DNA of 32,000 nucleotides from Alicycliphilus soli (GTDB taxonomy: Bacteria; Pseudomonadota; Gammaproteobacteria; Burkholderiales; Burkholderiaceae_C): NCBI RefSeq assembly GCF_040732315.1, contig NZ_CP160388.1, forward strand, positions 1,794,494-1,826,493, written 5' to 3'. The notes beneath the pieces are model-generated. The model had not been told where the DNA came from. It made no database searches and saw only the letters and a program-made list of their open reading frames with translations. Shown here piece after piece: positions 6,317 to 19,884 of this stretch (the stretch's first letter is position 1; each line of letters starts with the position of its first letter). The position numbers and the translations under genes were made by a program.

Positions 6317-9546
<3,230 letters not shown>

Positions 9547-11033: not shown

Positions 11034-11222
11034 GTGACATCCCTCGGGTTCAGCATGTGCTGGGTTCGAAGGACTCCGCTTGGGCTCACCGTTGGCAAAC
11101 TGAGCCGCGCAGAAGTCACGGGTCAAATACAGGGTGGGGCTTGACTGATCCGAAGACTCGATAGGGTTCGTCGGCAATGCCCGTCGGATATGCGATCAAC
11201 AGCGGAACACGATGCCAATCAT

Positions 11223-11250
11223 AGTTAACATAATATACAGAGGCGGTTTG
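11223..11250 (-). other. dif-like XerC/XerD site L
   Basis: Minus strand reads CAAACCGCCTC-TGTATA-TTATGTTAACT. The central hexamer is identical and the XerD arm matches 10/11 to E. coli dif (GGTGCGCATAA-TGTATA-TTATGTTAAAT). The XerC arm is non-canonical. Confidence 0.7.
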
Positions 11251-11500
11251 CTTGATCGAGCAGGGCGGCGCGAATCTCGGGGTTCTTGACCCGTTCGGCT
11301 GCTTGGTCAAGCACCACGCTAGCAGGCGCAATGCCTAGCATCTGCGCTACACTAATTGAAGCACGTTCATCCAATGTTGAGCCTCGTTTTCTGTAGAGGC
11401 TGATTGTTGCTTGGGTGATTCCAAGTGCTTTTGCGACGGCATAGTCGCTAGCAAATCCGCGTTCGTTCTTGACGCGGTCAATCCATTCAAAAGCCTTCAT
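11225..11500 (-). CDS. phage repressor-like HTH protein (XRE/CI-type)
   Basis: 91 aa with an HTH (YAVAKALGITQATISLYRKRG). Divergent from the phage early operon. The last five codons and the stop lie inside dif-like site L. Confidence 0.7.
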   Translation of the reverse strand: MKAFEWIDRVKNERGFASDYAVAKALGITQATISLYRKRGSTLDERASISVAQMLGIAPASVVLDQAAERVKNPEIRAALLDQANRLCILC

Positions 11501-11632
11501 GTTTGACTCTTCTGTTGCGTTGGCGATACGTTGCGCATGGTAGTTAAAGATTTAAAGACCTTCAAGTATTAGAGGGTATCAAATGCTTTGAGGTGTTTTG
11601 AGTACATTTCGGCTCATCAATAGGGAGTCGGC
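11501..11632. promoter_or_regulatory. divergent phage control region
   Basis: AT-rich. Tandem TTAAAGA (11544-11550, 11552-11558). TTTGAG repeated at 10-bp spacing (11587-11592, 11597-11602). Leftward candidate promoter TTGAAG (complement of 11560-11565), 17 nt, TACCAT (complement of 11537-11542). Confidence 0.35.
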
Positions 11633-12019
11633 ATGTCTCAAACACAAGTCATCTATCAGGGCGAGCGGTATACGGTGCGGCGCAAGGTCGGCAACGTGCT
11701 CGAACTTGCCTATGACACGGGCTCATTCTTCCGTCTGGTGCATGCCACCAGCGTAACCCCTTGTCCTGCCCTTGCGGTCGAAACGGCTGCATGTGGTTTG
11801 CCGACTCCAGCAGCCGCGCAGGGGCGGGACAACCGGGCCGCGTGGCTCTCTATTGCGGACTTTCTTGCCCTTGAAAATCTTCGTGGTGTCCTGCGTGACC
11901 GTGCGGCGCAAGCATGCGCCGGCATGGGCACGAGCTCCGCGAGGGCGCAGGCCGGCGCATGCTTGGGGGCCGCTCAAGTCCTCCCCCATGGTAATCACGG
12001 GGAGAACACCGAATGTTGA
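11633..12019 (+). CDS. hypothetical phage protein
   Basis: GGGAG RBS before the ATG. First gene of the rightward operon. No recognisable motif. Confidence 0.5.
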   Translation: MSQTQVIYQGERYTVRRKVGNVLELAYDTGSFFRLVHATSVTPCPALAVETAACGLPTPAAAQGRDNRAAWLSIADFLALENLRGVLRDRAAQACAGMGTSSARAQAGACLGAAQVLPHGNHGENTEC

Positions 12020-12543
12020 AAGTCGCTGCGCTGTTTGTTCGTTCTGACAGTCACTACAAAAAAATGGGTTGTGATTGTTACGACTTCGAACGTAATGCGT
12101 TGACCTGGCCGGGGGGTGTGCCTTCTGTAGCGCATCCGCCTTGCAGGGCATGGGGGCAGTTATCGCAGTTCGCGAAGCCTCGGGATGGTGAAAAAGAGCT
12201 TGCTCCGTGGGCGGTTGAGCAGGTTCGGCGGTTTGGCGGCGTCGTTGAACATCCCTATGCTTCCCGGTTGTGGGCAGTTATGGGCTGTGGTGGGTTCGGC
12301 CTGCGCGATCGCTGGGGCGGTGTGCTGATACCGGTTATGCAATCGTGGTGGGGCCACAGAGCGCCGAAAAAAACGGCGTTGTACATCGTGGGGCCAGTGC
12401 CTGCGCTACCTGACCCGGTGGGCGTCGCAACGGGTCGGGTTGAATTGATGGGTAAACGCGAGCGCGAAATGACCCCGTTTGAGTTTGCGCGTTTCCTCGT
12501 GGATATAGCACGTGAATCAAAAGGTTTTGGGGGTGCGGTATGA
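12013..12543 (+). CDS. hypothetical phage protein with C5-methyltransferase-like motif order (no motif I, no TRD)
   Basis: GGGGAG RBS 8 nt upstream. ATG overlaps the upstream stop (ATGTTGA), and its own stop overlaps the Rep start (ATGA). Motifs: HPPCRAWG, GGVVEHP, APKKTALYIVG, MTPFEFARF. Confidence 0.55.
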   Translation: MLKVAALFVRSDSHYKKMGCDCYDFERNALTWPGGVPSVAHPPCRAWGQLSQFAKPRDGEKELAPWAVEQVRRFGGVVEHPYASRLWAVMGCGGFGLRDRWGGVLIPVMQSWWGHRAPKKTALYIVGPVPALPDPVGVATGRVELMGKREREMTPFEFARFLVDIARESKGFGGAV

Positions 12544-13793
12544 CCCGTCCAGCAGGAACCCGGCTGAACAAGCATTCCAAAACCTGCGCGCTGGTGCTTG
12601 ATGGGTCGGAAGTCAAAGCGCGGTTGATGATCGAGCGACGCGAAACCAAAATGCCGGTGCATGTGGATTGGGTGCGGTTCACGGCGCTGGTGCGTAATGC
12701 GCCGACACCTGAGGTCGATGTACTCTTTCCTGAACCCGTGGAGTTGCTGAGTCTTGCTGAACAGGACGAAAGTGAACGGCGAAAAAAGCGCCTGCGCAAA
12801 ATGCTCGCGGAACTGCCTGACCCGCAATACGCGCCAGGCGGGCAAGCTCTGGAACTGGCGGAAAAAGTGGCGTCGATCCTTGGGGATGAATTCGTTGTCG
12901 TTTCTGAGCTTCGCAAGGGTCACGACTTCTATGCAAAGCGCATCAGTATCGAGCGTCACGGCTCTGAAGTGGGATGGGTCGGCTTCGGCGCAAGCGGCGA
13001 TAGCCCACGGCAAAAAGCGCAATCGCAAACCCTGCATGTCAATCTTTACGGCACGGCGTGTACCTTTGCCAAGGCGGGATGGCGCGATGCCATTGCGGAC
13101 CTGGTTGATGAGCTGGACGCCAAAATAACCCGCGTTGATCTGGCGTTGGACTTCTTCGATGGCCTCGCCGGTGGCATGCGTCGAATCAAAGCCGACTATG
13201 AGCATGGCTTGATGGATTGCGGCGGTAAGCGCCCCAAGTGCAACATGGTTGGCGACTGGTCAAACGGCCCAGTCGAGGGCAAGGGGCGTAGCTTCTATAT
13301 CGGCTCCAAGGAAGCCGGAAAGCAAACGAACGTCTACGAAAAAGGGCATCAGCTTTTTGGCGAAAAAGATGCATCCGGCTGGATCAGGGCTGAATTGCGG
13401 TTTGGCAACAAACTTCGCGTTCTGCCGTCTGATCTCCTGCGTTACCCGGCATCAGGCTTTGCCGGTGCCAGCGACTGGCACGCGGCGCTGCTCAATGAGG
13501 CGGGCGCTACGGTTGACCCGTTCAAAGTGCCTTGTGAAAAGCGCTTGGCGGCGGAAACCATCGAAGCGGAAGTAACCCGTAATGTGCGATGGGTGCGTGA
13601 CGTTGCGGGCGCGTCCCTGTCCCTGGCCTTTCAGTACTTGGGCGAAAACGCCTTTCTCGAAATTGTGAATCCAAAAGCGGTTCCGGGTCGTCTGCGTCGA
13701 TTCAGCCGTGATGAGATTCGTTGTGCCTATGAAAAAGCGCATGGGCGTGTTTATCGGCCAGCGGGGACGGGTCAACCTTGCGTAACGGCTTAA
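12540..13793 (+). CDS. rolling-circle replication initiation protein (Rep_trans / RstA-like)
   Basis: VDLALDFFDG and RSFYIGSKEAGKQTNVYEKGHQ resemble the conserved blocks of filamentous-phage Rep_trans initiators. 417 aa. An internal start cannot be excluded. Confidence 0.75.
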   Translation: MTRPAGTRLNKHSKTCALVLDGSEVKARLMIERRETKMPVHVDWVRFTALVRNAPTPEVDVLFPEPVELLSLAEQDESERRKKRLRKMLAELPDPQYAPGGQALELAEKVASILGDEFVVVSELRKGHDFYAKRISIERHGSEVGWVGFGASGDSPRQKAQSQTLHVNLYGTACTFAKAGWRDAIADLVDELDAKITRVDLALDFFDGLAGGMRRIKADYEHGLMDCGGKRPKCNMVGDWSNGPVEGKGRSFYIGSKEAGKQTNVYEKGHQLFGEKDASGWIRAELRFGNKLRVLPSDLLRYPASGFAGASDWHAALLNEAGATVDPFKVPCEKRLAAETIEAEVTRNVRWVRDVAGASLSLAFQYLGENAFLEIVNPKAVPGRLRRFSRDEIRCAYEKAHGRVYRPAGTGQPCVTA

Positions 13794-13819
13794 TCAACTG
13801 ACCAAAAGAAGGAAGCATC

Positions 13820-14143
13820 ATGCAATTTAAGTCCGAAGTCATCATTCACGGCATCAAGGAAAGCAAAGGCAGTATTGAGGGCCGGGAGTTTTCGAGTACG
13901 ACATTCCATTGTGAAGTCGATCTCGCAGAAAACAGCGCGGGTCGCTCCATCGGTCGCGCAACCCGTCCCTTCAAATTGGGCGATGCTAAGGAATTCGACA
14001 AGTGGTCACACCTGGGCGATTCTCTGCCGATCAAGGCAATTGCCACGTTTGAAATGGCGGCGGCTGCGCAAGATGGCACGAAAATGGTGTTGGTCGATAT
14101 TCGTCCGGTCGAAATGGCAAAGCCTGCGCAAAAGGCGGCGTAA
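13820..14143 (+). CDS. putative ssDNA-binding protein (g5p analogue)
   Basis: 107 aa directly after Rep with a strong RBS (GAAGGAAG). Assigned by position and size only. Confidence 0.45.
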   Translation: MQFKSEVIIHGIKESKGSIEGREFSSTTFHCEVDLAENSAGRSIGRATRPFKLGDAKEFDKWSHLGDSLPIKAIATFEMAAAAQDGTKMVLVDIRPVEMAKPAQKAA

Positions 14144-14145
14144 AA

Positions 14146-14358
14146 ATGCGCTACGTCATCCAAAGCGCATTTACGGGCGCATTCCTCGCGCCGAATCCCG
14201 ATGATGGGCAACCCGAATGGGTCATGCTCCTGCGGGATGCTTGCGCGGTGGATGACTTGGAAACCTGCGCGCAATTGATCGAAGATCATTGCGACTCATA
14301 CCATAAGGCGGTCGTCGTTGATTTGCGATGTTTATACAAAAACCCGCAAGTCGAATAA
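14146..14358 (+). CDS. hypothetical small acidic phage protein
   Basis: 70 aa. Starts 2 nt after the upstream stop. No motif recognised. Confidence 0.4.
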   Translation: MRYVIQSAFTGAFLAPNPDDGQPEWVMLLRDACAVDDLETCAQLIEDHCDSYHKAVVVDLRCLYKNPQVE

Positions 14359-14440
14359 TGGCGTGTGCAGCATATAGGCGTTGATGACGCCTATCTGATG
14401 CGTATGCATCATTTTCTCAACTACTTTTGGAGGTTCGAAT

Positions 14441-14641
14441 ATGAACACGAAAAACGCTCTGCGCTTTGGCGCTATCCCTGCCGGTCTGCTCGGTGCTTTC
14501 GGCGCTGCCAATGCTGCGGTTCCGCAGGAAATTACTGACGCCATCAGCACCATGCAGGCTGACGGCGTGACGGTGGCAACTGCCTTTGTGGTTGCGGCTA
14601 TCGCCGTTGCAGCAATCAAGTTCCTGCGCTCGGCAAAGTGA
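14441..14641 (+). CDS. major coat protein (g8p-like)
   Basis: Signal peptide MNTKNALRFGAIPAGLLGAFGAANA. The mature part has an acidic N-terminus (PQEITDAISTMQAD), a hydrophobic core (VATAFVVAAIAVAAI) and a basic C-terminus (KFLRSAK). GGAGG RBS. Confidence 0.8.
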   Translation: MNTKNALRFGAIPAGLLGAFGAANAAVPQEITDAISTMQADGVTVATAFVVAAIAVAAIKFLRSAK

Positions 14642-14958
14642 GCTATCAGGTCGGCGCAACCTGCTATGGCAGCGCAGTAGATGCGCTGTCTGCTGTCGCC
14701 TCGTCGCAAGTCGGGGCGGTCGTCGTGCATGGTGGCGCGGCCTACGTGGTGGGAGTTCAGGCTGTCGGGCCTGACTCCATCACGTATAGCCTGCAACCCG
14801 TCGCCGGGGGGCAAGCTATCCAAAGCGTCGTTGCGCTGACTCCGCAACCGTGCGGCCTGCTTGAGTGGCAAGACGGTTTGGCGCTTGGGTGGGCTGTTGC
14901 GGCGGCCTGGATCGCTACGGCGGCAATACTGCATCTTCGTAAGGCTGCGCACCAATGA
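14638..14958 (+). CDS. putative minor coat / membrane protein
   Basis: GTG start overlapping the coat stop (GTGA). C-terminal TM segment LALGWAVAAAWIATAAILHL followed by RK. Confidence 0.45.
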   Translation: MSYQVGATCYGSAVDALSAVASSQVGAVVVHGGAAYVVGVQAVGPDSITYSLQPVAGGQAIQSVVALTPQPCGLLEWQDGLALGWAVAAAWIATAAILHLRKAAHQ

Positions 14959-15001
14959 CACCGGATTTCGCAATTATGTTTTTGGCCGTCGCAGGGTTGG
15001 C

Positions 15002-16399
15002 ATGGATCGTTTCGCAAAACTGGTAATCGCTGCTGGCCTGGGCCTGGCGTCGTTTTCGGCGTCTGCGGGCTATGCGTGGCCGTCTGATCCGGTGGGGTTC
15101 ACGCGGTCGGGTGCATGGGGCAAGGGGTACGGCTACGCGGCGGCGGCTAACGATCAATTATTCGGTAGCGGGAAAATCATCTATCAGAGTAACGGGTTAA
15201 AGGTGCCTGTGCCTGGTAGAGTTACAACAATGCCGGTTGCGTATCGGCTTGCGGCGAATGCGCCGCGATATGCAGCGCGGGCGCTTTATCTGCATCCTGG
15301 CGCGCGGGCGGCTATGGGGATAGCGGCATGGCTCGGTGCGGCGGGGTTGGTATGGGATGCCGCGCAAAACGCATGGGTGAGGCCGGATGGGAGTTCAGGC
15401 ACGGTGTCGGACGGATATGAATACAGCCCTGGCGGTGAGCAGTATTACCCGACGCCTGAGCAAGCGTGTGAGGCGCATATGGCGACATACACGGGGCCTA
15501 TGTTTGCGACGTTTAAATCGATTAAACCGTTTGGGGCGTCATATCAATGTATATTTAGGAAATATATAGTTAATGAGGATGGGTCGCAATCGGTAATTAA
15601 TGAGAATACGACGCATATTCTGAATAAACGGCAGAGTCAGTGTCCGCAGGGTTGGTATCACACGTCAGCAGGTTGTACACAGAACCCGCAGCCTAATAGA
15701 GTGACGCAAGAGGAATTTGAGGAGCTTTTGTCACCTAAGCCAATGCCGGAAACGGTGCCGCAGGAGTTGCCGTATCCAACGCCTTTGCCGGTTGATCCGA
15801 CGCCGGGGCCATGGGTTAATCCGGAGCCTGGCGATAATCCCAAGCATCGGCCTACGTTTATTCCGAATGGCGATCCGGTGCCAAATCCTAATTACAACCC
15901 TAATGCAGAACCAAGCACAGAAAATCAGCCATATGTCGAGCCTGGCACGCATGTAAAACCGTCGCCAAGTCCAGAAGACCCGTGGCGAATAGAAATCAAG
16001 CCGGTGAATCGTCCGAAGCCCAGTCCGGAGTCGGGGCCGGAGCAGCAGCCAGACCCTAACCCGGATGAAAACGGCAATACCAATACGGGCGACAAGCCGA
16101 AGGAAGATCCGGGGTTGTGTGAGTTGTACCCGGATATTCTCGCGTGCGTGAAGCTGGATACGCCAGACGAGGAAGAATTGCCAGAGTCGGAAAAGCCGAT
16201 TGCCGTCACACCTGATGCGGGGTGGGGGCCTGATGGCGGGTCATGTCCTGCGCCTCGCATGCTCACGGTTCAGGGGCGTCAAATCCCGATACCGTTTGAT
16301 TTGTTCTGCGTCTATATGTCGGGGCTTCGGCCAATCATCATTGCCATGGCCTGGCTGAGTGCTGCGTTTATTCTGGTCGGCGCAAGGGAGGGCGATTGA
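15002..16399 (+). CDS. adsorption protein (g3p-like)
   Basis: ORF 14861..16399 trimmed to ATG 15002. Signal peptide MDRFAKLVIAAGLGLASFSASA, a long Pro-rich linker (PQPNRV...PDPNPDENG), and a C-terminal anchor LRPIIIAMAWLSAAFILVG. Confidence 0.65.
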   Translation: MDRFAKLVIAAGLGLASFSASAGYAWPSDPVGFTRSGAWGKGYGYAAAANDQLFGSGKIIYQSNGLKVPVPGRVTTMPVAYRLAANAPRYAARALYLHPGARAAMGIAAWLGAAGLVWDAAQNAWVRPDGSSGTVSDGYEYSPGGEQYYPTPEQACEAHMATYTGPMFATFKSIKPFGASYQCIFRKYIVNEDGSQSVINENTTHILNKRQSQCPQGWYHTSAGCTQNPQPNRVTQEEFEELLSPKPMPETVPQELPYPTPLPVDPTPGPWVNPEPGDNPKHRPTFIPNGDPVPNPNYNPNAEPSTENQPYVEPGTHVKPSPSPEDPWRIEIKPVNRPKPSPESGPEQQPDPNPDENGNTNTGDKPKEDPGLCELYPDILACVKLDTPDEEELPESEKPIAVTPDAGWGPDGGSCPAPRMLTVQGRQIPIPFDLFCVYMSGLRPIIIAMAWLSAAFILVGAREGD

Positions 16400-16677
16400 T
16401 GGGCTTTGGAACCTTCTTGGCGTCCCTGGCGGGGCCAATTGTTAAGCGGGCCATGATCGCGCTAGGGTTCGGTGTCGTGTCATACGCGGCGATGACGGCG
16501 GCGCTGAATGCGGCGCTGTCTGCGGCTAAAAACGCATGGGCGGGGCTGGCGGGCTTTCCTGAGGCGCTACAGCTAGTGCAACTGGCCGGGATCAATACGG
16601 CTGCATCCATCATTGCCGGGGCGCTGGTGGCGCGTGTGGCGATGCAAAGCCTTAAAAAATTCGAGGTTGTCAAGTGA
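16399..16677 (+). CDS. g6p-like minor coat protein (DUF2523-like)
   Basis: ATG overlaps the g3p-like stop (TGATG) and is preceded by GGGAGGG. Small hydrophobic Ala/Gly-rich protein placed between g3p and Zot. Confidence 0.55.
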   Translation: MGFGTFLASLAGPIVKRAMIALGFGVVSYAAMTAALNAALSAAKNAWAGLAGFPEALQLVQLAGINTAASIIAGALVARVAMQSLKKFEVVK

Positions 16678-17864
16678 TAACGCTGCTGACGGGCATGCCG
16701 GGCGCGGGCAAAACGGCGGCCATGATCGACTTGTTGCAAGACCTGGCGAAAGATCGTCCGGTGTTTGTGCATTTCGACCCAAAAGAGCGTTTGCGGCCAG
16801 AGCAAAAGCTTTTGCACGAAACTCTGCTTATTCCGCATCAGCCGGTCAATGCGGCGACCTGGCACGAGGAAGTATCTGACGGCGGGATATTGGTCATCGA
16901 CGAGGCACAGGGCTGCTGGCGACCACGCGGGCCAGCGGCCAAAGTGCCGGAGGCAATCGCGGCGCTCGAAACCCATCGGCACGCGGGGATTGATATTTTC
17001 ATTACCACGCAAAGCCCCAGGCTGATTGATGCCAACGTGCGCGGCCTGGTCGGGCGGCATGTGCATATTCGGGACACTGGGTGGTTGGGCCGGTGGTGGT
17101 ACGAGTGGCCGGAAGTGAATGAAGGTCTGGCCTGGAAAACATGCCCAGTCAAAAAGCGGTACAAGCTGCCGCGCAAAGTGTTCGACCTGTACGCAAGCGC
17201 GAACGAGCACCACAAGCCGGTTCGTGCTGCCCCGAAAACCCTTGCGCTGGTGGCGGTGCTGCTGGTGTGTTTGACAGTCCTGGTCGGCCTGATCGTGCGG
17301 ACCTTCAAAAATCACACGGCAGAGAAACCAGCGGCGGCGGTGCCTGCGCCCCAAGCGCCCCAGGTGCCCCAAGCATTGCCAGTAAACCCGGTGACGGTCG
17401 AAGATGATGATGGTATGAACGGGTCGTTGGATGAGCGTATTGCGTTTGTTCCGCGTCTGTCTGATCGACCCTGGACGGCTCCGGCGTATGACGGTTATCG
17501 GGTCGTCGTCCATATGCCGGTCGTTGCCGGTGCCATCTGCAAAGGGGATGAATGCATCTGCCTGACGGCGGACGGGGCGAAAGTGCCTGATATGAGCGCG
17601 GCGGCGTGCAAGACCTGGCTGCAATCGCCACGGCCATTTAACCCGTACGTGCTGCCGCCTCCGCCAGCGGCTAGCGTCCCTGTCGGTCGTGGCGGGCGCG
17701 GCGGTGCTGTTTCGGGTGATACTGAACCCGGCGAACGTCAAACCGTTGCTGTTCCTGGCGGGAGCGCAAACGTAGTTCCCATGGCTGACGTTTCCGTGAA
17801 TCTGCGAAGCGCAATAGCAGGTACAGGGCAATACCGGCCAGCAGGATCAGGCCAGCCACTGTAA
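16674..17864 (+). CDS. Zot / pI-like phage assembly ATPase
   Basis: Walker A GMPGAGKT, Walker B ILVIDEAQ, a central TM segment LALVAVLLVCLTVLVGLIV, and a Cys-containing periplasmic C-domain. GTG start overlaps the upstream stop. Confidence 0.9.
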   Translation: MITLLTGMPGAGKTAAMIDLLQDLAKDRPVFVHFDPKERLRPEQKLLHETLLIPHQPVNAATWHEEVSDGGILVIDEAQGCWRPRGPAAKVPEAIAALETHRHAGIDIFITTQSPRLIDANVRGLVGRHVHIRDTGWLGRWWYEWPEVNEGLAWKTCPVKKRYKLPRKVFDLYASANEHHKPVRAAPKTLALVAVLLVCLTVLVGLIVRTFKNHTAEKPAAAVPAPQAPQVPQALPVNPVTVEDDDGMNGSLDERIAFVPRLSDRPWTAPAYDGYRVVVHMPVVAGAICKGDECICLTADGAKVPDMSAAACKTWLQSPRPFNPYVLPPPPAASVPVGRGGRGGAVSGDTEPGERQTVAVPGGSANVVPMADVSVNLRSAIAGTGQYRPAGSGQPL

Positions 17865-17909
17865 AAGGGTCTGCGAGAAAATCGACGGTCATCCCTCTAG
17901 GTTACTTCA

Positions 17910-18179
17910 TTAGTCCCAAAAGCCGCGCAAAGCGGCTTTTACTTTTTGACCCAGTGCGCGCGCGGCGCGTGCGGCGTCCTTTGCCCATTGCGGCGTCACC
18001 TTGGGCGCGGGATGCGCGATGCGGCCAGCAGCCGCAAAGGCCTTGCCGCGCGCGGCGCGGATCTGGCGCTGGATGCGCGTCGTAGGCCGTGGCAAAGCCC
18101 ACACCAGGGCGCGGCCAAACGGAAGCGGCAATTGCAGCGCGAGGGCGTCGGGGTGCTTGCGGTAGTTTGCAGCGATCAT
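17910..18179 (-). CDS. hypothetical basic phage protein
   Basis: ORF 17910..18251 trimmed to ATG 18179, with AGGAG 9 nt upstream. 89 aa, Arg/Lys/Ala-rich, no motif recognised. Confidence 0.4.
   Translation of the reverse strand: MIAANYRKHPDALALQLPLPFGRALVWALPRPTTRIQRQIRAARGKAFAAAGRIAHPAPKVTPQWAKDAARAARALGQKVKAALRGFWD
17918..17947 (+). terminator. rho-independent terminator after the structural operon (possibly bidirectional)
   Basis: AAAAGCCGC-GCAAA-GCGGCTTTT followed by ACTTTTT. Lies inside the last codons of the minus-strand ORF 17910..18179. Confidence 0.6.
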
Positions 18180-18423
18180 GGCGCTAATCTCCTGAGTCGA
18201 ACGAGGCCAGCACGCGGCGCGGGGTGGCCTTGTTCGCGAGGAGCGATGCACAGCAGGGACAGCTATTTGTCAAGGGGCCGCGCGGAAATCGCAGCCCGGA
18301 GCGCAGCGGAGGGACCGATTGAGCACGGCGGCGAAGCCCGAAGCCCTTTACAAATAGATGGCGCTGCGGTAAATGCCCAGCTGGCCTGTGCCATAGGGCG
18401 TGCTAGGTCTGGCGCGGTGCTGG

Positions 18424-18735
18424 TTACGCGGCGCGGAAAAATGGCCGGTTCGCGGCGCGGTCGTTGCTGTCCAAAAGTCTCTCAAGCTCTCGCACCTGGC
18501 GTACGAGGCGGGCATTTTGGGATTGCAGCGCCTGGGCTAATCCGTGCTGCACCTGGGCGTAATTGTGGGCGTCGCAATCAGCGGCTGATCGTCCCCAACG
18601 TGTTTCCCAAAAAAGCGCCAGTAGCACCGGGCGCGGTGCGTCGTCGGCCTGTAGATACCGGCGCATCGTGCGCTCTGTGATACCCAGTAACTTTGCAACC
18701 TGGGCGGGCGATGCGCCCAGGTCATCAAACATCAT
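18424..18735 (-). CDS. HTH DNA-binding protein (putative phage regulator)
   Basis: MMFDDLGASPAQVAKLLGITERTMRRYL is a clear HTH, followed by a C-terminal coiled-coil-like LVRQVRELERLL. Start taken at the ATGATG at 18735. Confidence 0.6.
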   Translation of the reverse strand: MMFDDLGASPAQVAKLLGITERTMRRYLQADDAPRPVLLALFWETRWGRSAADCDAHNYAQVQHGLAQALQSQNARLVRQVRELERLLDSNDRAANRPFFRAA

Positions 18736-18882
18736 GGTCAAGCTCGGCAGACTGCGGGGGCTTCGGAACATAAAAGCCCCAATGCATAACTAGCACGGCT
18801 TGTCAATAGGGAAAAAACTGACCACGGTTTGACTTGGCGCAATCGGCGGGAGCGTCGAAGCCTCTCCAGCGGCTTTTTCAGG

Positions 18883-18910
18883 ATTAAACATAATATACAT
18901 CGTATCCAAC
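18883..18910 (-). other. dif-like XerC/XerD site R
   Basis: Minus strand reads GTTGGATACGA-TGTATA-TTATGTTTAAT. Central hexamer identical, XerD arm 10/11 to E. coli dif. Same orientation as site L. Shares the 13-mer AACATAATATACA with site L. Confidence 0.7.
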
Positions 18911-18996: not shown

Positions 18997-19587
18997 TTAC
19001 GCCGCCGGTGGTACGTGCACCGGTTGCTGTTGCCGGCGTCGAATCGAGCGATGCCCACCAAGTAGTGCCAAGGCACCGACCACCATCAGCCAAGACGGCG
19101 GTTCGGGCACGGCATTGGTGAAGTTTACGATCACCTTGGTGCCGTCGACGTAAGAGAGACCGCTCCAATTGATGGCGATACGCCCGCTGTCGAAGCTGAC
19201 GCGGCTGGCGTCAAAACCGGTCATGGTCGTCGTTGGGTCGACCGCCGCAGCGACAATATCCAGTGGACCGCCTGATATGAGATCAAACACCAACCCGTTG
19301 AAGGACGTACTGTTCCACGTCGGGGCTAGAAGCGACGTAGTTAGCAACAGGGCCAGCGAATTGTCGGAAAAGTCGACACTGATCTGCGTGACGCCTTCTA
19401 CATCGAACAATGTTTCATTACCCGCTCCGACGGTGAAAGTTGACGGCGATACCGATGCGCCGCTATAGGCTGTGGTGATGTCGGGATGGGCGTAGAACGT
19501 CGAAAAGCCTTTGCCGACCAAGCCCGCATGGGCCGCTGATGCCATCACTAGTGCAGCGGCCGAAACGATCAGTTTGACAGCAGACAT
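18997..19587 (-). CDS. PEP-CTERM sorting-domain protein
   Basis: Trimmed to ATG 19587 (GGAG RBS). Signal peptide MSAVKLIVSAAALVMASAAHA. C-terminal VPEPPSWLMVVGALALLGGHRSIRRRQ combines the PEP motif, a TM segment and a basic cluster. Confidence 0.75.
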   Translation of the reverse strand: MSAVKLIVSAAALVMASAAHAGLVGKGFSTFYAHPDITTAYSGASVSPSTFTVGAGNETLFDVEGVTQISVDFSDNSLALLLTTSLLAPTWNSTSFNGLVFDLISGGPLDIVAAAVDPTTTMTGFDASRVSFDSGRIAINWSGLSYVDGTKVIVNFTNAVPEPPSWLMVVGALALLGGHRSIRRRQQQPVHVPPAA

Positions 19588-19762
19588 GATCGACTCCACA
19601 AAGTGCGTGATGCGAGAGGATTGTCCATGTCGCGGATGGTTGTCAATCCACACCAACCGGGATGGCGGCCAAGGTCCTGGCGCGCTAGCTAGATGAGCTT
19701 TGAGGTACAGCATGGACCATGCTGCATTACCCCGCCCAACAGGGCATCAGCCTGTCACCAAC

Positions 19763-19808: not shown

Positions 19809-19884
19809 TGGTAGGACGTACAAGATTCGAACTTGTGACCAACGGATTAAAAGTCCGCTGCTCTACCAACTGAGCTAACGTCCC
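19809..19884 (-). tRNA. tRNA-Lys (anticodon UUU)
   Basis: Reverse complement GGGACGTTAGCTCAGTTGGTAGAGCAGCGGACTTTTAATCCGTTGGTCACAAGTTCGAATCTTGTACGTCCTACCA folds as a 76-nt cloverleaf. Anticodon loop CTTTTAA, encoded CCA. Closely similar to E. coli tRNA-Lys. Confidence 0.9.

Follow-up and report, generated by a model that had tools for sequence, protein, structure and literature searches.

How does a filamentous phage that encodes no recombinase come to lie in a bacterial chromosome with both of its ends at dif-like sites? The question is raised by a 32,000-nucleotide stretch of Alicycliphilus soli contig NZ_CP160388.1 (the whole stretch is referred to below as the window). It contains an inovirus prophage of 7.66 kb (7,660 nucleotides as a circle), bounded by sites at 11223-11250 and 18883-18910. 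Near its ends are two leftward lysogeny genes, for a repressor and for a 115-residue helix-turn-helix (HTH) protein that we call HTH115. A preliminary description, made from the sequence by itself, had taken the block for an integrase-less inovirus between co-oriented dif-like sites and hence for a candidate IMEX (an integrative mobile element that exploits Xer), dependent on the host recombinases XerC and XerD. That proposal is borne out by an unoccupied site in a closely related contig, L001, and by the match of this site to dif of the Comamonadaceae. With a probability of roughly 85%, we consider the block to be a XerCD-dependent IMEX at dif, that is, a temperate inovirus whose phage attachment site (attP) is of the left-armed type seen in phage RSS0 and in the PM2 module. 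The basis of this reading is the presence at dif of an inovirus without a recombinase of its own.

The 13-mer AACATAATATACA, earlier noted as common to both sites, occurs exactly twice in the 32 kb, at 11227 and 18887 and both times on the + strand; the count expected from dinucleotide shuffles is 0.00. When the window was scanned with E. coli dif, only 11223-11250 and 18883-18910 were recovered, and no canonical CGCATAA-TGTATA site was found in it. Read on the - strand, the two sites are as follows.

11223-11250, - strand: left site (attL), CAAACCGCCTC TGTATA TTATGTTAACT, made up of the phage XerC-side arm CAAACCGCCTC, the centre and the host XerD arm TTATGTTAACT; the breakpoint against L001 is at 11239.
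18883-18910, - strand: right site (attR), GTTGGATACGA TGTATA TTATGTTTAAT, made up of the host XerC arm GTTGGATACGA, the centre and the phage XerD arm TTATGTTTAAT.

At both sites the centre is that of E. coli dif (6/6) and the XerD arm agrees with it at 10/11 positions, as had been stated. The XerC-side arm agrees with E. coli dif at 5/11 positions in the right site and at 1/11 in the left. A full 28-bp site at each end, as first described, is not what is present: the left end is a 17-bp half-site followed by phage coding sequence. The core shared by the two sites is 13 bp if exact, or 17 bp with one mismatch.

The metagenomic contig L001 (ENA ERZ27299002, 7.8 kb), which was found by looking up the flanking CpoB protein, is 97-99% identical to both flanks and is without the prophage; in it the ArsR gene is joined directly to the PEP-CTERM gene, tRNA-Lys and ThiF. 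BLAST breakpoints against L001 fall at window positions 11239 and 18883, with an overlap of 17 bp. The unoccupied site of L001 is a single 28-bp sequence, GTTGGATACGA TGTATA TTATGTTAAAT (in context ...AGTTAACATAATATACATCGTATCC...), and attR is identical to it but for one base in the XerD arm. The empty-site junction proposed as a check in the preliminary description is present in L001, and the block is not universal at this locus, a possibility which that description had held against itself. Together, attL and attR are reciprocal dif/attP hybrids in direct orientation. The host belongs to the Comamonadaceae, and the empty site matches the predicted dif of Delftia acidovorans at 27/28 positions. 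Because L001 has a single site and this site matches Delftia dif so closely, the insertion is seen to be precise and at a genuine, family-type dif. The dif sequences predicted for Comamonadaceae all share an XerC arm of the ...GATACGA type, ending in ...ACGA (Kono et al. 2011 supplement, PMC3025954):

Delftia acidovorans, predicted dif: GTTCGATACGATGTATATTATGTTAAAT (PMC3025954).
Acidovorax sp. JS42, predicted dif: ACTAGATACGA... (PMC3025954).
Rhodoferax ferrireducens, predicted dif: ACTTGATACGA... (PMC3025954).
Polaromonas sp. JS666, predicted dif: ATATTCCACGA... (PMC3025954).

The XerC arm of the right site agrees with that of Delftia acidovorans at 10/11 positions. Two other interpretations of the site were tried and rejected. 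A pseudo-dif, or the scar of an older IMEX carrying the PEP-CTERM gene, was discarded because all predicted Comamonadaceae dif sites have this XerC arm and because the window lacks the canonical CGCATAA-TGTATA sequence. Integration at the tRNA-Lys gene, 0.9 kb off, was discarded because the breakpoints fall at dif. The GC skew is +0.034 in the left flank and -0.006 in the right, a weak terminus signal. The ratio of GGGNAGGG motifs pointing toward the site to those pointing away is 4:0 on the left side and, on the right, 4:2 (Fisher p = 0.07); this motif is the FtsK-orienting polar sequence (KOPS) of E. coli, which may not be that of the host. The skew and the motif polarity are weakly consistent with a replication terminus.

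Reconstructed by reciprocal exchange, attP would read CAAACCGCCTC TGTATA TTATGTTTAAT, and the predicted junction of the circular form is ...GGATTAAACATAATATACAGAGGCGGTTTG.... The phage XerC-side arm CAAACCGCCTC agrees with the host arm at 1/11 positions, and likewise with the E. coli arm at 1/11. The attR arm TTATGTTTAAT recurs in two IMG/VR contigs, L098 and L132, next to a different host XerC arm, ACTAGATACGA of the Acidovorax JS42 type, and is therefore phage-derived. Another contig, L105, repeats the full layout. Its attL, ATTTAACATAA TATACA TTCCGGCCGCA, lies over the 3' end of a repressor gene whose product is 67% identical to the window repressor; its attR, ATTTAACATAA TATACA TCGTATCTACC, follows an HTH115 homologue; and the arm on its XerC side shows no relation to that of the host (3/11, counted by hand). 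As the window phage and relatives such as L105 agree, attP in this phage group consists of an XerD arm and the centre, with no XerC arm. The attR site is probably the working dif of the lysogen, since its one-base difference from the empty site falls where natural dif sites vary. A promoter scan near attR gave nothing informative. Between attR and the HTH115 start, the motif TGTCAATA(A)GGGAAA is found both in the window (18790-18815) and in L105 (8325-8345); its coding strand contains TTGACA, and the motif might serve the lysogeny module as operator or as -35 element.

The 7.66-kb block has what is expected of an inovirus genome (about 5-10 kb): a Rep protein, a g8p-type coat protein and a Zot/pI protein, encoded in canonical order on one strand. 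The left flank has a GC content of 0.69 and the right flank one of 0.675, whereas that of the block is 0.58. The genes and other elements between the two att sites are listed below; family matches are from scans of Pfam and of the PHROGs collection.

11225-11500, - strand: HTH repressor of P16/RstR/CI type, 91 aa in the prophage; phrog_4441 (E 8.5e-23) and phrog_638 (E 2e-16).
11633-12019, + strand: 128-aa open reading frame (ORF), the first rightward gene; no match in Pfam and PHROG scans; homologues of 39-51% identity at the same position in L102, L104, L105 and L109.
12013-12543, + strand: conserved phage protein of 176 aa; phrog_12600 (E 1.9e-52); no match in Pfam and PDB searches.
12540-13793, + strand: Rep_trans rolling-circle replication initiator (Rep); PF02486 (E 7e-23) and phrog_453 (E 2.6e-67).
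13820-14143, + strand: 107-aa protein at the position of g5p (single-stranded DNA-binding); phrog_4994 (E 3.9e-26), which has no assigned function; no match in a PDB search.
14146-14358, + strand: 70-aa ORF, kept with the replication module; tblastn matches in 42/43 related contigs.
14441-14641, + strand: major coat protein of g8p type, 66 aa; Phage_Coat_B PF05356 (E 1.3e-9) and phrog_7106 (E 1.4e-13).
14638-14958, + strand: 106-aa ORF, by position only a possible minor coat protein; no family match in Pfam or PHROGs.
14996-16399, + strand: g3p-like adsorption protein; PF05616, TspB, in its C-terminal region (E 9e-9) and phrog_13221 (E 1.9e-27).
16396-16677, + strand: g6p-like minor coat protein (DUF2523); PF10734 (E 5e-16) and phrog_1242.
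16674-17864, + strand: Zot/pI assembly ATPase; PF05707 (E 1.5e-20) and phrog_197 (E 1.4e-58).
17918-17940, + strand: terminator-like hairpin at the end of the rightward operon, a 9-bp stem followed by a T run.
17910-18251, - strand: ORF113, 113 aa, co-conserved with the HTH115 gene; 50-63% identity in L096, L098, L105, L106, L130 and L132; no match in a Pfam scan.
18424-18771, - strand: HTH115, 115 aa, HTH and coiled coil; candidate Xer activation factor and putative remote homologue of P15/XafT.

All module genes are intact ORFs. Among the block ORFs of at least 100 aa there was no integrase, transposase or secretin in the Pfam and PHROGs scans of 11223-18910, and the two leftward HTH regulators are at 11225-11500 and 18424-18771, both as had been reported from the sequence. 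Of the functions then given to the rightward module, Rep_trans, coat, g3p-like, g6p-like and Zot were recovered by the hidden Markov model scans; the single-stranded DNA-binding label of the 107-aa protein was not, its family being phrog_4994 and its assignment one of position. The g3p-like protein has a signal peptide and a proline-rich linker, and its start is either GTG 14996 or ATG 15002.

No GenBank phage was matched when the entire block was used in a nucleotide search. The Rep protein is 32-34% identical to those of the Ralstonia phages PE226 and RSS1; in 42/43 related IMG/VR contigs its identity is 48-68%, and in the remaining one, L133, it is 33%. The 107-aa protein is co-conserved with Rep in 43/43 of these contigs. 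Rep, the 107-aa protein and the 70-aa ORF form a replication trio that is kept in 42/43 of the group (L091-L133). The modules around this trio, structural and lysogenic, are swapped, and a dif-like site is not seen in most of these relatives. The gene for the 176-aa phrog_12600 protein overlaps the start of Rep in the window; a homologue in L098 has the opposite orientation and is near the lysogeny end. Mosaicism is strong in the group, which probably has several routes of integration.

The position of attP within the repressor gene gives the site a second aspect. The reading frame of the repressor runs across attP, which is thus inside the 3' end of the gene. In the prophage the frame ends at a TAA in the host XerD arm (TTATGT-TAA-AT), to give a protein of 91 aa; in the reconstructed circle this stretch, now from the phage arm, is TTATGT-TTA-AT, and the repressor ORF extends to 140 aa. 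The arm substitution that removes the stop is TTA in the window, L098 and L132, and AAA in RSS0 (window 11225-11233 and 18883-18893; L134 6756-6774). This sole mismatch in the XerD arm of attP may have been selected for coding reasons. The two PHROGs matched by the repressor, phrog_4441 and phrog_638, are the same two that are matched by P16 of PM2 and by ORF13 of RSS0, and with P16, to which it is homologous, the repressor has 28% identity in BLASTP (E 1e-5).

The gene at the other end of the prophage, HTH115, belongs to a large, unannotated family: an initial search gave 185 matches, and a profile search gave 812 or more clusters at the 50% identity level. Its invariant motifs include APR..LALFWETRWG and a C-terminal AN.P, and the AlphaFold model (pLDDT 88.6) shows an HTH followed by a long helix. 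Searches of Pfam, of PDB sequences and of PDB folds gave generic HTH matches only. In hhalign, HTH115 aligned with the family of PM2 protein P15, labelled DUF3653 by NCBI, with 88% probability (E 2.9e-6, 83 columns). The only significant viral fold match was to an uncharacterised protein of the same length from the Corticoviridae (E 8.5e-5, TM 0.76). These comparisons suggest that HTH115 is probably a remote homologue of P15/XafT. At 8/9 loci with enough upstream sequence, a similarly oriented dif-like site is present upstream of the HTH115 start, at a distance of 105-131 bp; the eight represent five independent elements, both inoviruses and PM2-like prophages. No dif-like site was found upstream of the most distant homologue (L131, 42% identity). 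In two contigs, L136 (1-7223) and L139 (1-7229), the HTH115 homologue is at the dif-proximal end of a PM2-like prophage with P2_N/P2_C capsid genes, and one of their dif sites has the Polaromonas-type XerC arm ATATTCCACGA. The homologues in L136, L139 and L138 (1-400) are 47-48% identical to HTH115; these contigs have double-jelly-roll capsid genes and come from hosts with dif arms of the Polaromonas type. To judge from these sequences, HTH115 is a putative lysogeny gene common to inoviruses and corticovirus-like phages of Betaproteobacteria.

How might integration take place at a site that lacks an XerC arm? In the circular form the order on the - strand is repressor, attP in its 3' end, HTH115 and ORF113. 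We propose a XerD-first, HTH115-assisted step, to which we give slightly less than an even chance. Host XerCD would perform the exchange. XerD would bind both partners, attP and dif, well, and XerC would be held on attP by cooperativity only. HTH115 would activate XerD, stabilise the synapse, or both, independently of FtsK; XerD would then exchange the first pair of strands, and the Holliday junction would be resolved either by XerC or by replication. Integration regenerates a near-perfect dif at attR and leaves attL as a crippled half-site without an XerC arm, which should limit FtsK-driven excision. It also shortens the 140-aa repressor to 91 aa, by way of the TAA in the host XerD arm, and it separates HTH115 from the repressor gene upstream of it. 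This separation would keep HTH115 low in lysogens, as reported for XafT of the Vibrio cholerae phage TLCphi, a factor that activates XerD and stabilises imperfect synapses and whose expression drops after integration (PMC6744903, PMC9226527). A more extended proposal would make the HTH115 family a new, minimal class of Xer activation or synapsis factor, which would allow XerD-first recombination on sites without an XerC arm, in mirror image to TLCphi; the module would be one that inoviruses and PM2-like corticoviruses have in common by horizontal transfer across the Burkholderiales, and the XerD-arm mismatch would double as a coding switch that lengthens the episomal repressor. We put this forward only tentatively and, taken as a whole, think it doubtful.

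The closest analogue of attP is that of RSS0 (Restivirus RSS1; JQ408219), which like the window phage has a high-GC host of the Burkholderiales, encodes no integrase and integrates at dif (Yamada 2013, PMC3816273). The statement in the preliminary description that no characterised example was at hand from such a high-GC host is wrong, for RSS0 is a precedent in Ralstonia, a high-GC betaproteobacterium. The published core of RSS0 is TATTTAACATAAGATAAAT (PMC3816273). Its attP in JQ408219 is ATTTTACATAA GATAAA TCGTTGACCTG and the dif of GMI1000 is CCATCGCATAA TTTATC TTATGTTAAAT; the two agree at 10/11 positions in the XerD arm, 6/6 in the centre and 3/11 on the XerC side. The RSS0 attP, too, is in the 3' end of a leftward HTH repressor gene of phrog_638/phrog_4441 (ORF13), with the same frame over TTA-TGT. 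There, too, an in-frame TAA in the host arm truncates the repressor (from 156 to 130 aa), and a single mismatch in the phage arm removes the stop (TAA to AAA). The differences are that the proteins are distant (identity 32% for Rep, 34% for Zot and 23% for g3p), that RSS0 has no homologue of HTH115 or ORF113, and that its host is of another family, with the centres GATAAA and TATACA each following the dif of the respective host.

In 2025, PM2-like corticoviruses and Vibrio CTX-I inoviruses were reported to have an arrangement of repressor, attP and regulator with a left-armed 17-bp attP (PMC12715192). The window has the same components: a repressor, a 17-bp attP made up of XerD arm and centre, and a leftward regulator, the two genes (11225-11500 and 18424-18771) forming the prophage termini and flanking attP. 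HTH115 is about 40 aa shorter than PM2 P15 and is without a detectable Pfam DUF3653 signature. The attP of PM2 is intergenic, whereas that of the window overlaps the coding end of the repressor, and the window phage has a betaproteobacterial host, whose XerC arm is divergent. TLCphi also resembles the window phage. It has no integrase; of the two arms of its attP one is canonical and the other degenerate, and the centre is fully homologous; a small HTH factor is encoded beside attP; and a functional dif is regenerated on one side. It is, however, a mirror image, as the XerD arm is the degenerate one in TLCphi and the XerC arm in the window phage (XerD arm 10/11). The role of XafT was shown biochemically for TLCphi, whereas that of HTH115 we only infer.

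CTXphi, VGJphi and the Xanthomonas phages Cf and Lf are, like the window phage, inoviruses that use host XerCD at dif, and the preliminary description had seen in the block the signature of these phages. The attP reconstructed here does not fit that description, for it has the XerD arm and centre, no XerC arm and no inverted copy. In the route of VGJphi, Cf and Lf, double-stranded attP would recombine with dif by a first exchange catalysed by XerC, replication would resolve the junction and no phage factor would take part. A good XerC arm in attP is required for this and is kept by VGJphi, whereas the XerC-side agreement is 1/11 here and 3/11 in both L105 and RSS0. The attPs of Cf and Lf share the XerC arm and centre with dif, the opposite of the identity seen here, which covers the XerD side and the whole centre. 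Although inovirus IMEXs are most commonly described as using this route (PMC9226527), and although RSS0 has the same attP design and no HTH115-like gene, it is an improbable one for the window phage. Still far less probable is the route of CTXphi, in which folded (+) single-stranded DNA, with a hairpin attP formed from two inverted half-sites, is inserted irreversibly in a XerC-driven reaction. The window phage is like CTXphi in being an inovirus with a Rep_trans (RstA-like) initiator. However, the best candidate for an inverted second copy of the 17-bp core in the 7.66-kb phage has 6/17 mismatches and is more than 3 kb away, which excludes a CTX-type hairpin attP, and what is seen at attL, attR and the empty site agrees with a simple reciprocal exchange of double-stranded DNA.

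A further alternative is that the block entered dif by Xer recombination and is now an immobile remnant, unable to excise or to make virions. In its favour are the lack of an XerC arm in attL and the failure to find an episomal junction or a free-phage contig in IMG/VR, the JGI metagenomes or an index of assemblies. On the other hand, the module genes are all intact, the cores of attL and attR are undegraded, and the presence of the block is polymorphic between genomes that are 97-99% identical, which argues for recent movement. We consider such a remnant unlikely, though less so than either of the XerC-driven routes. The reading as a XerCD-dependent IMEX with a left-armed attP must itself be set against several observations that weigh on the other side. 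The circular junction, which the preliminary description had proposed to look for, was sought with the attL/attP 20-mer AACATAATATACAGAGGCGG (core and phage arm) and had no match in IMG/VR or the JGI metagenomes, such absence from databases being weak evidence. No exact phage protein was on record in the assemblies index when Rep, the 107-aa protein, the coat protein and P0001 were looked up. The xerC and xerD genes are not within the window. A dif-like site was found within 10 kb of ThiF in 0/80 Comamonadaceae loci, and the left flank is not syntenic, so that the terminus call rests on identity to predicted dif together with weak skew and KOPS signals. We regard the locus as a rearrangement breakpoint at which the position of dif is species-specific, and synteny as no support either way. 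As to HTH115, Pfam DUF3653 was not reached in 106 scans of family members (from two alignments, A1 and A2, both of which include the window protein), and HTH115 can be aligned with P15 only if some 22 residues are taken as deleted from it, within the region that Pfam models. Nor is an HTH115-like factor obviously required, since RSS0, the closest attP analogue, has no such ORF.

The host DNA around the insertion has several features of its own. In the roughly 25 bp of host DNA that adjoin the XerD arm on its outer side (window 11195-11226 compared with 6811-6842 of the reverse complement of L001), the lysogen and the empty-site strain differ at many positions, well above the level expected from the 97% identity of the flank; the divergence may go back to earlier IMEX traffic or to recombination at dif. 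On the other side, between dif and tRNA-Lys, is the gene for a PEP-CTERM-anchored protein (18997-19713, - strand) with a GC content of 0.55-0.58. Upstream of it (19647-19745) the window and L001 do not align, a sign of a small variable islet. The gene is transcribed toward attR and HTH115, and read-through into the prophage is conceivable. Contig L003 (2174-4529) has the ThiF/tRNA-Lys flank at 99% identity and, directly after it, genes of a tailed phage (head-closure, connector and TerL); from this layout the tRNA-Lys(ttt) gene (window 19809-19884, - strand) is a second prophage integration hot spot in the population, used by a tailed prophage in L003; several further contigs likewise break at tRNA-Lys. 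An exact look-up of the long ThiF ORF found nothing on record. A protein of Oryzisolibacter sp. LB2S matches one of the phage proteins at 100% identity.

The strategy seen here is a known one in a new instance, an IMEX from the Comamonadaceae with its boundaries resolved; a limited literature search found no filamentous phage or IMEX described for this family. Moderately new is the HTH115 family, probably as a minimal XafT-like factor. The module of repressor, attP and XafT-like gene, earlier known from Vibrio and Pseudoalteromonas, extends to inoviruses and PM2-like prophages of the Burkholderiales. Prophages of this kind can be delimited by using the HTH115 gene in combination with a dif half-site as a marker, and the divergent ...GATACGA XerC arm matters for programs that search for dif and IMEXs with a consensus built on E. 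coli or Vibrio. An attP that consists of XerD arm and centre, common to the window phage and RSS0, raises the question of whether XerC is positioned without its arm or is dispensed with.

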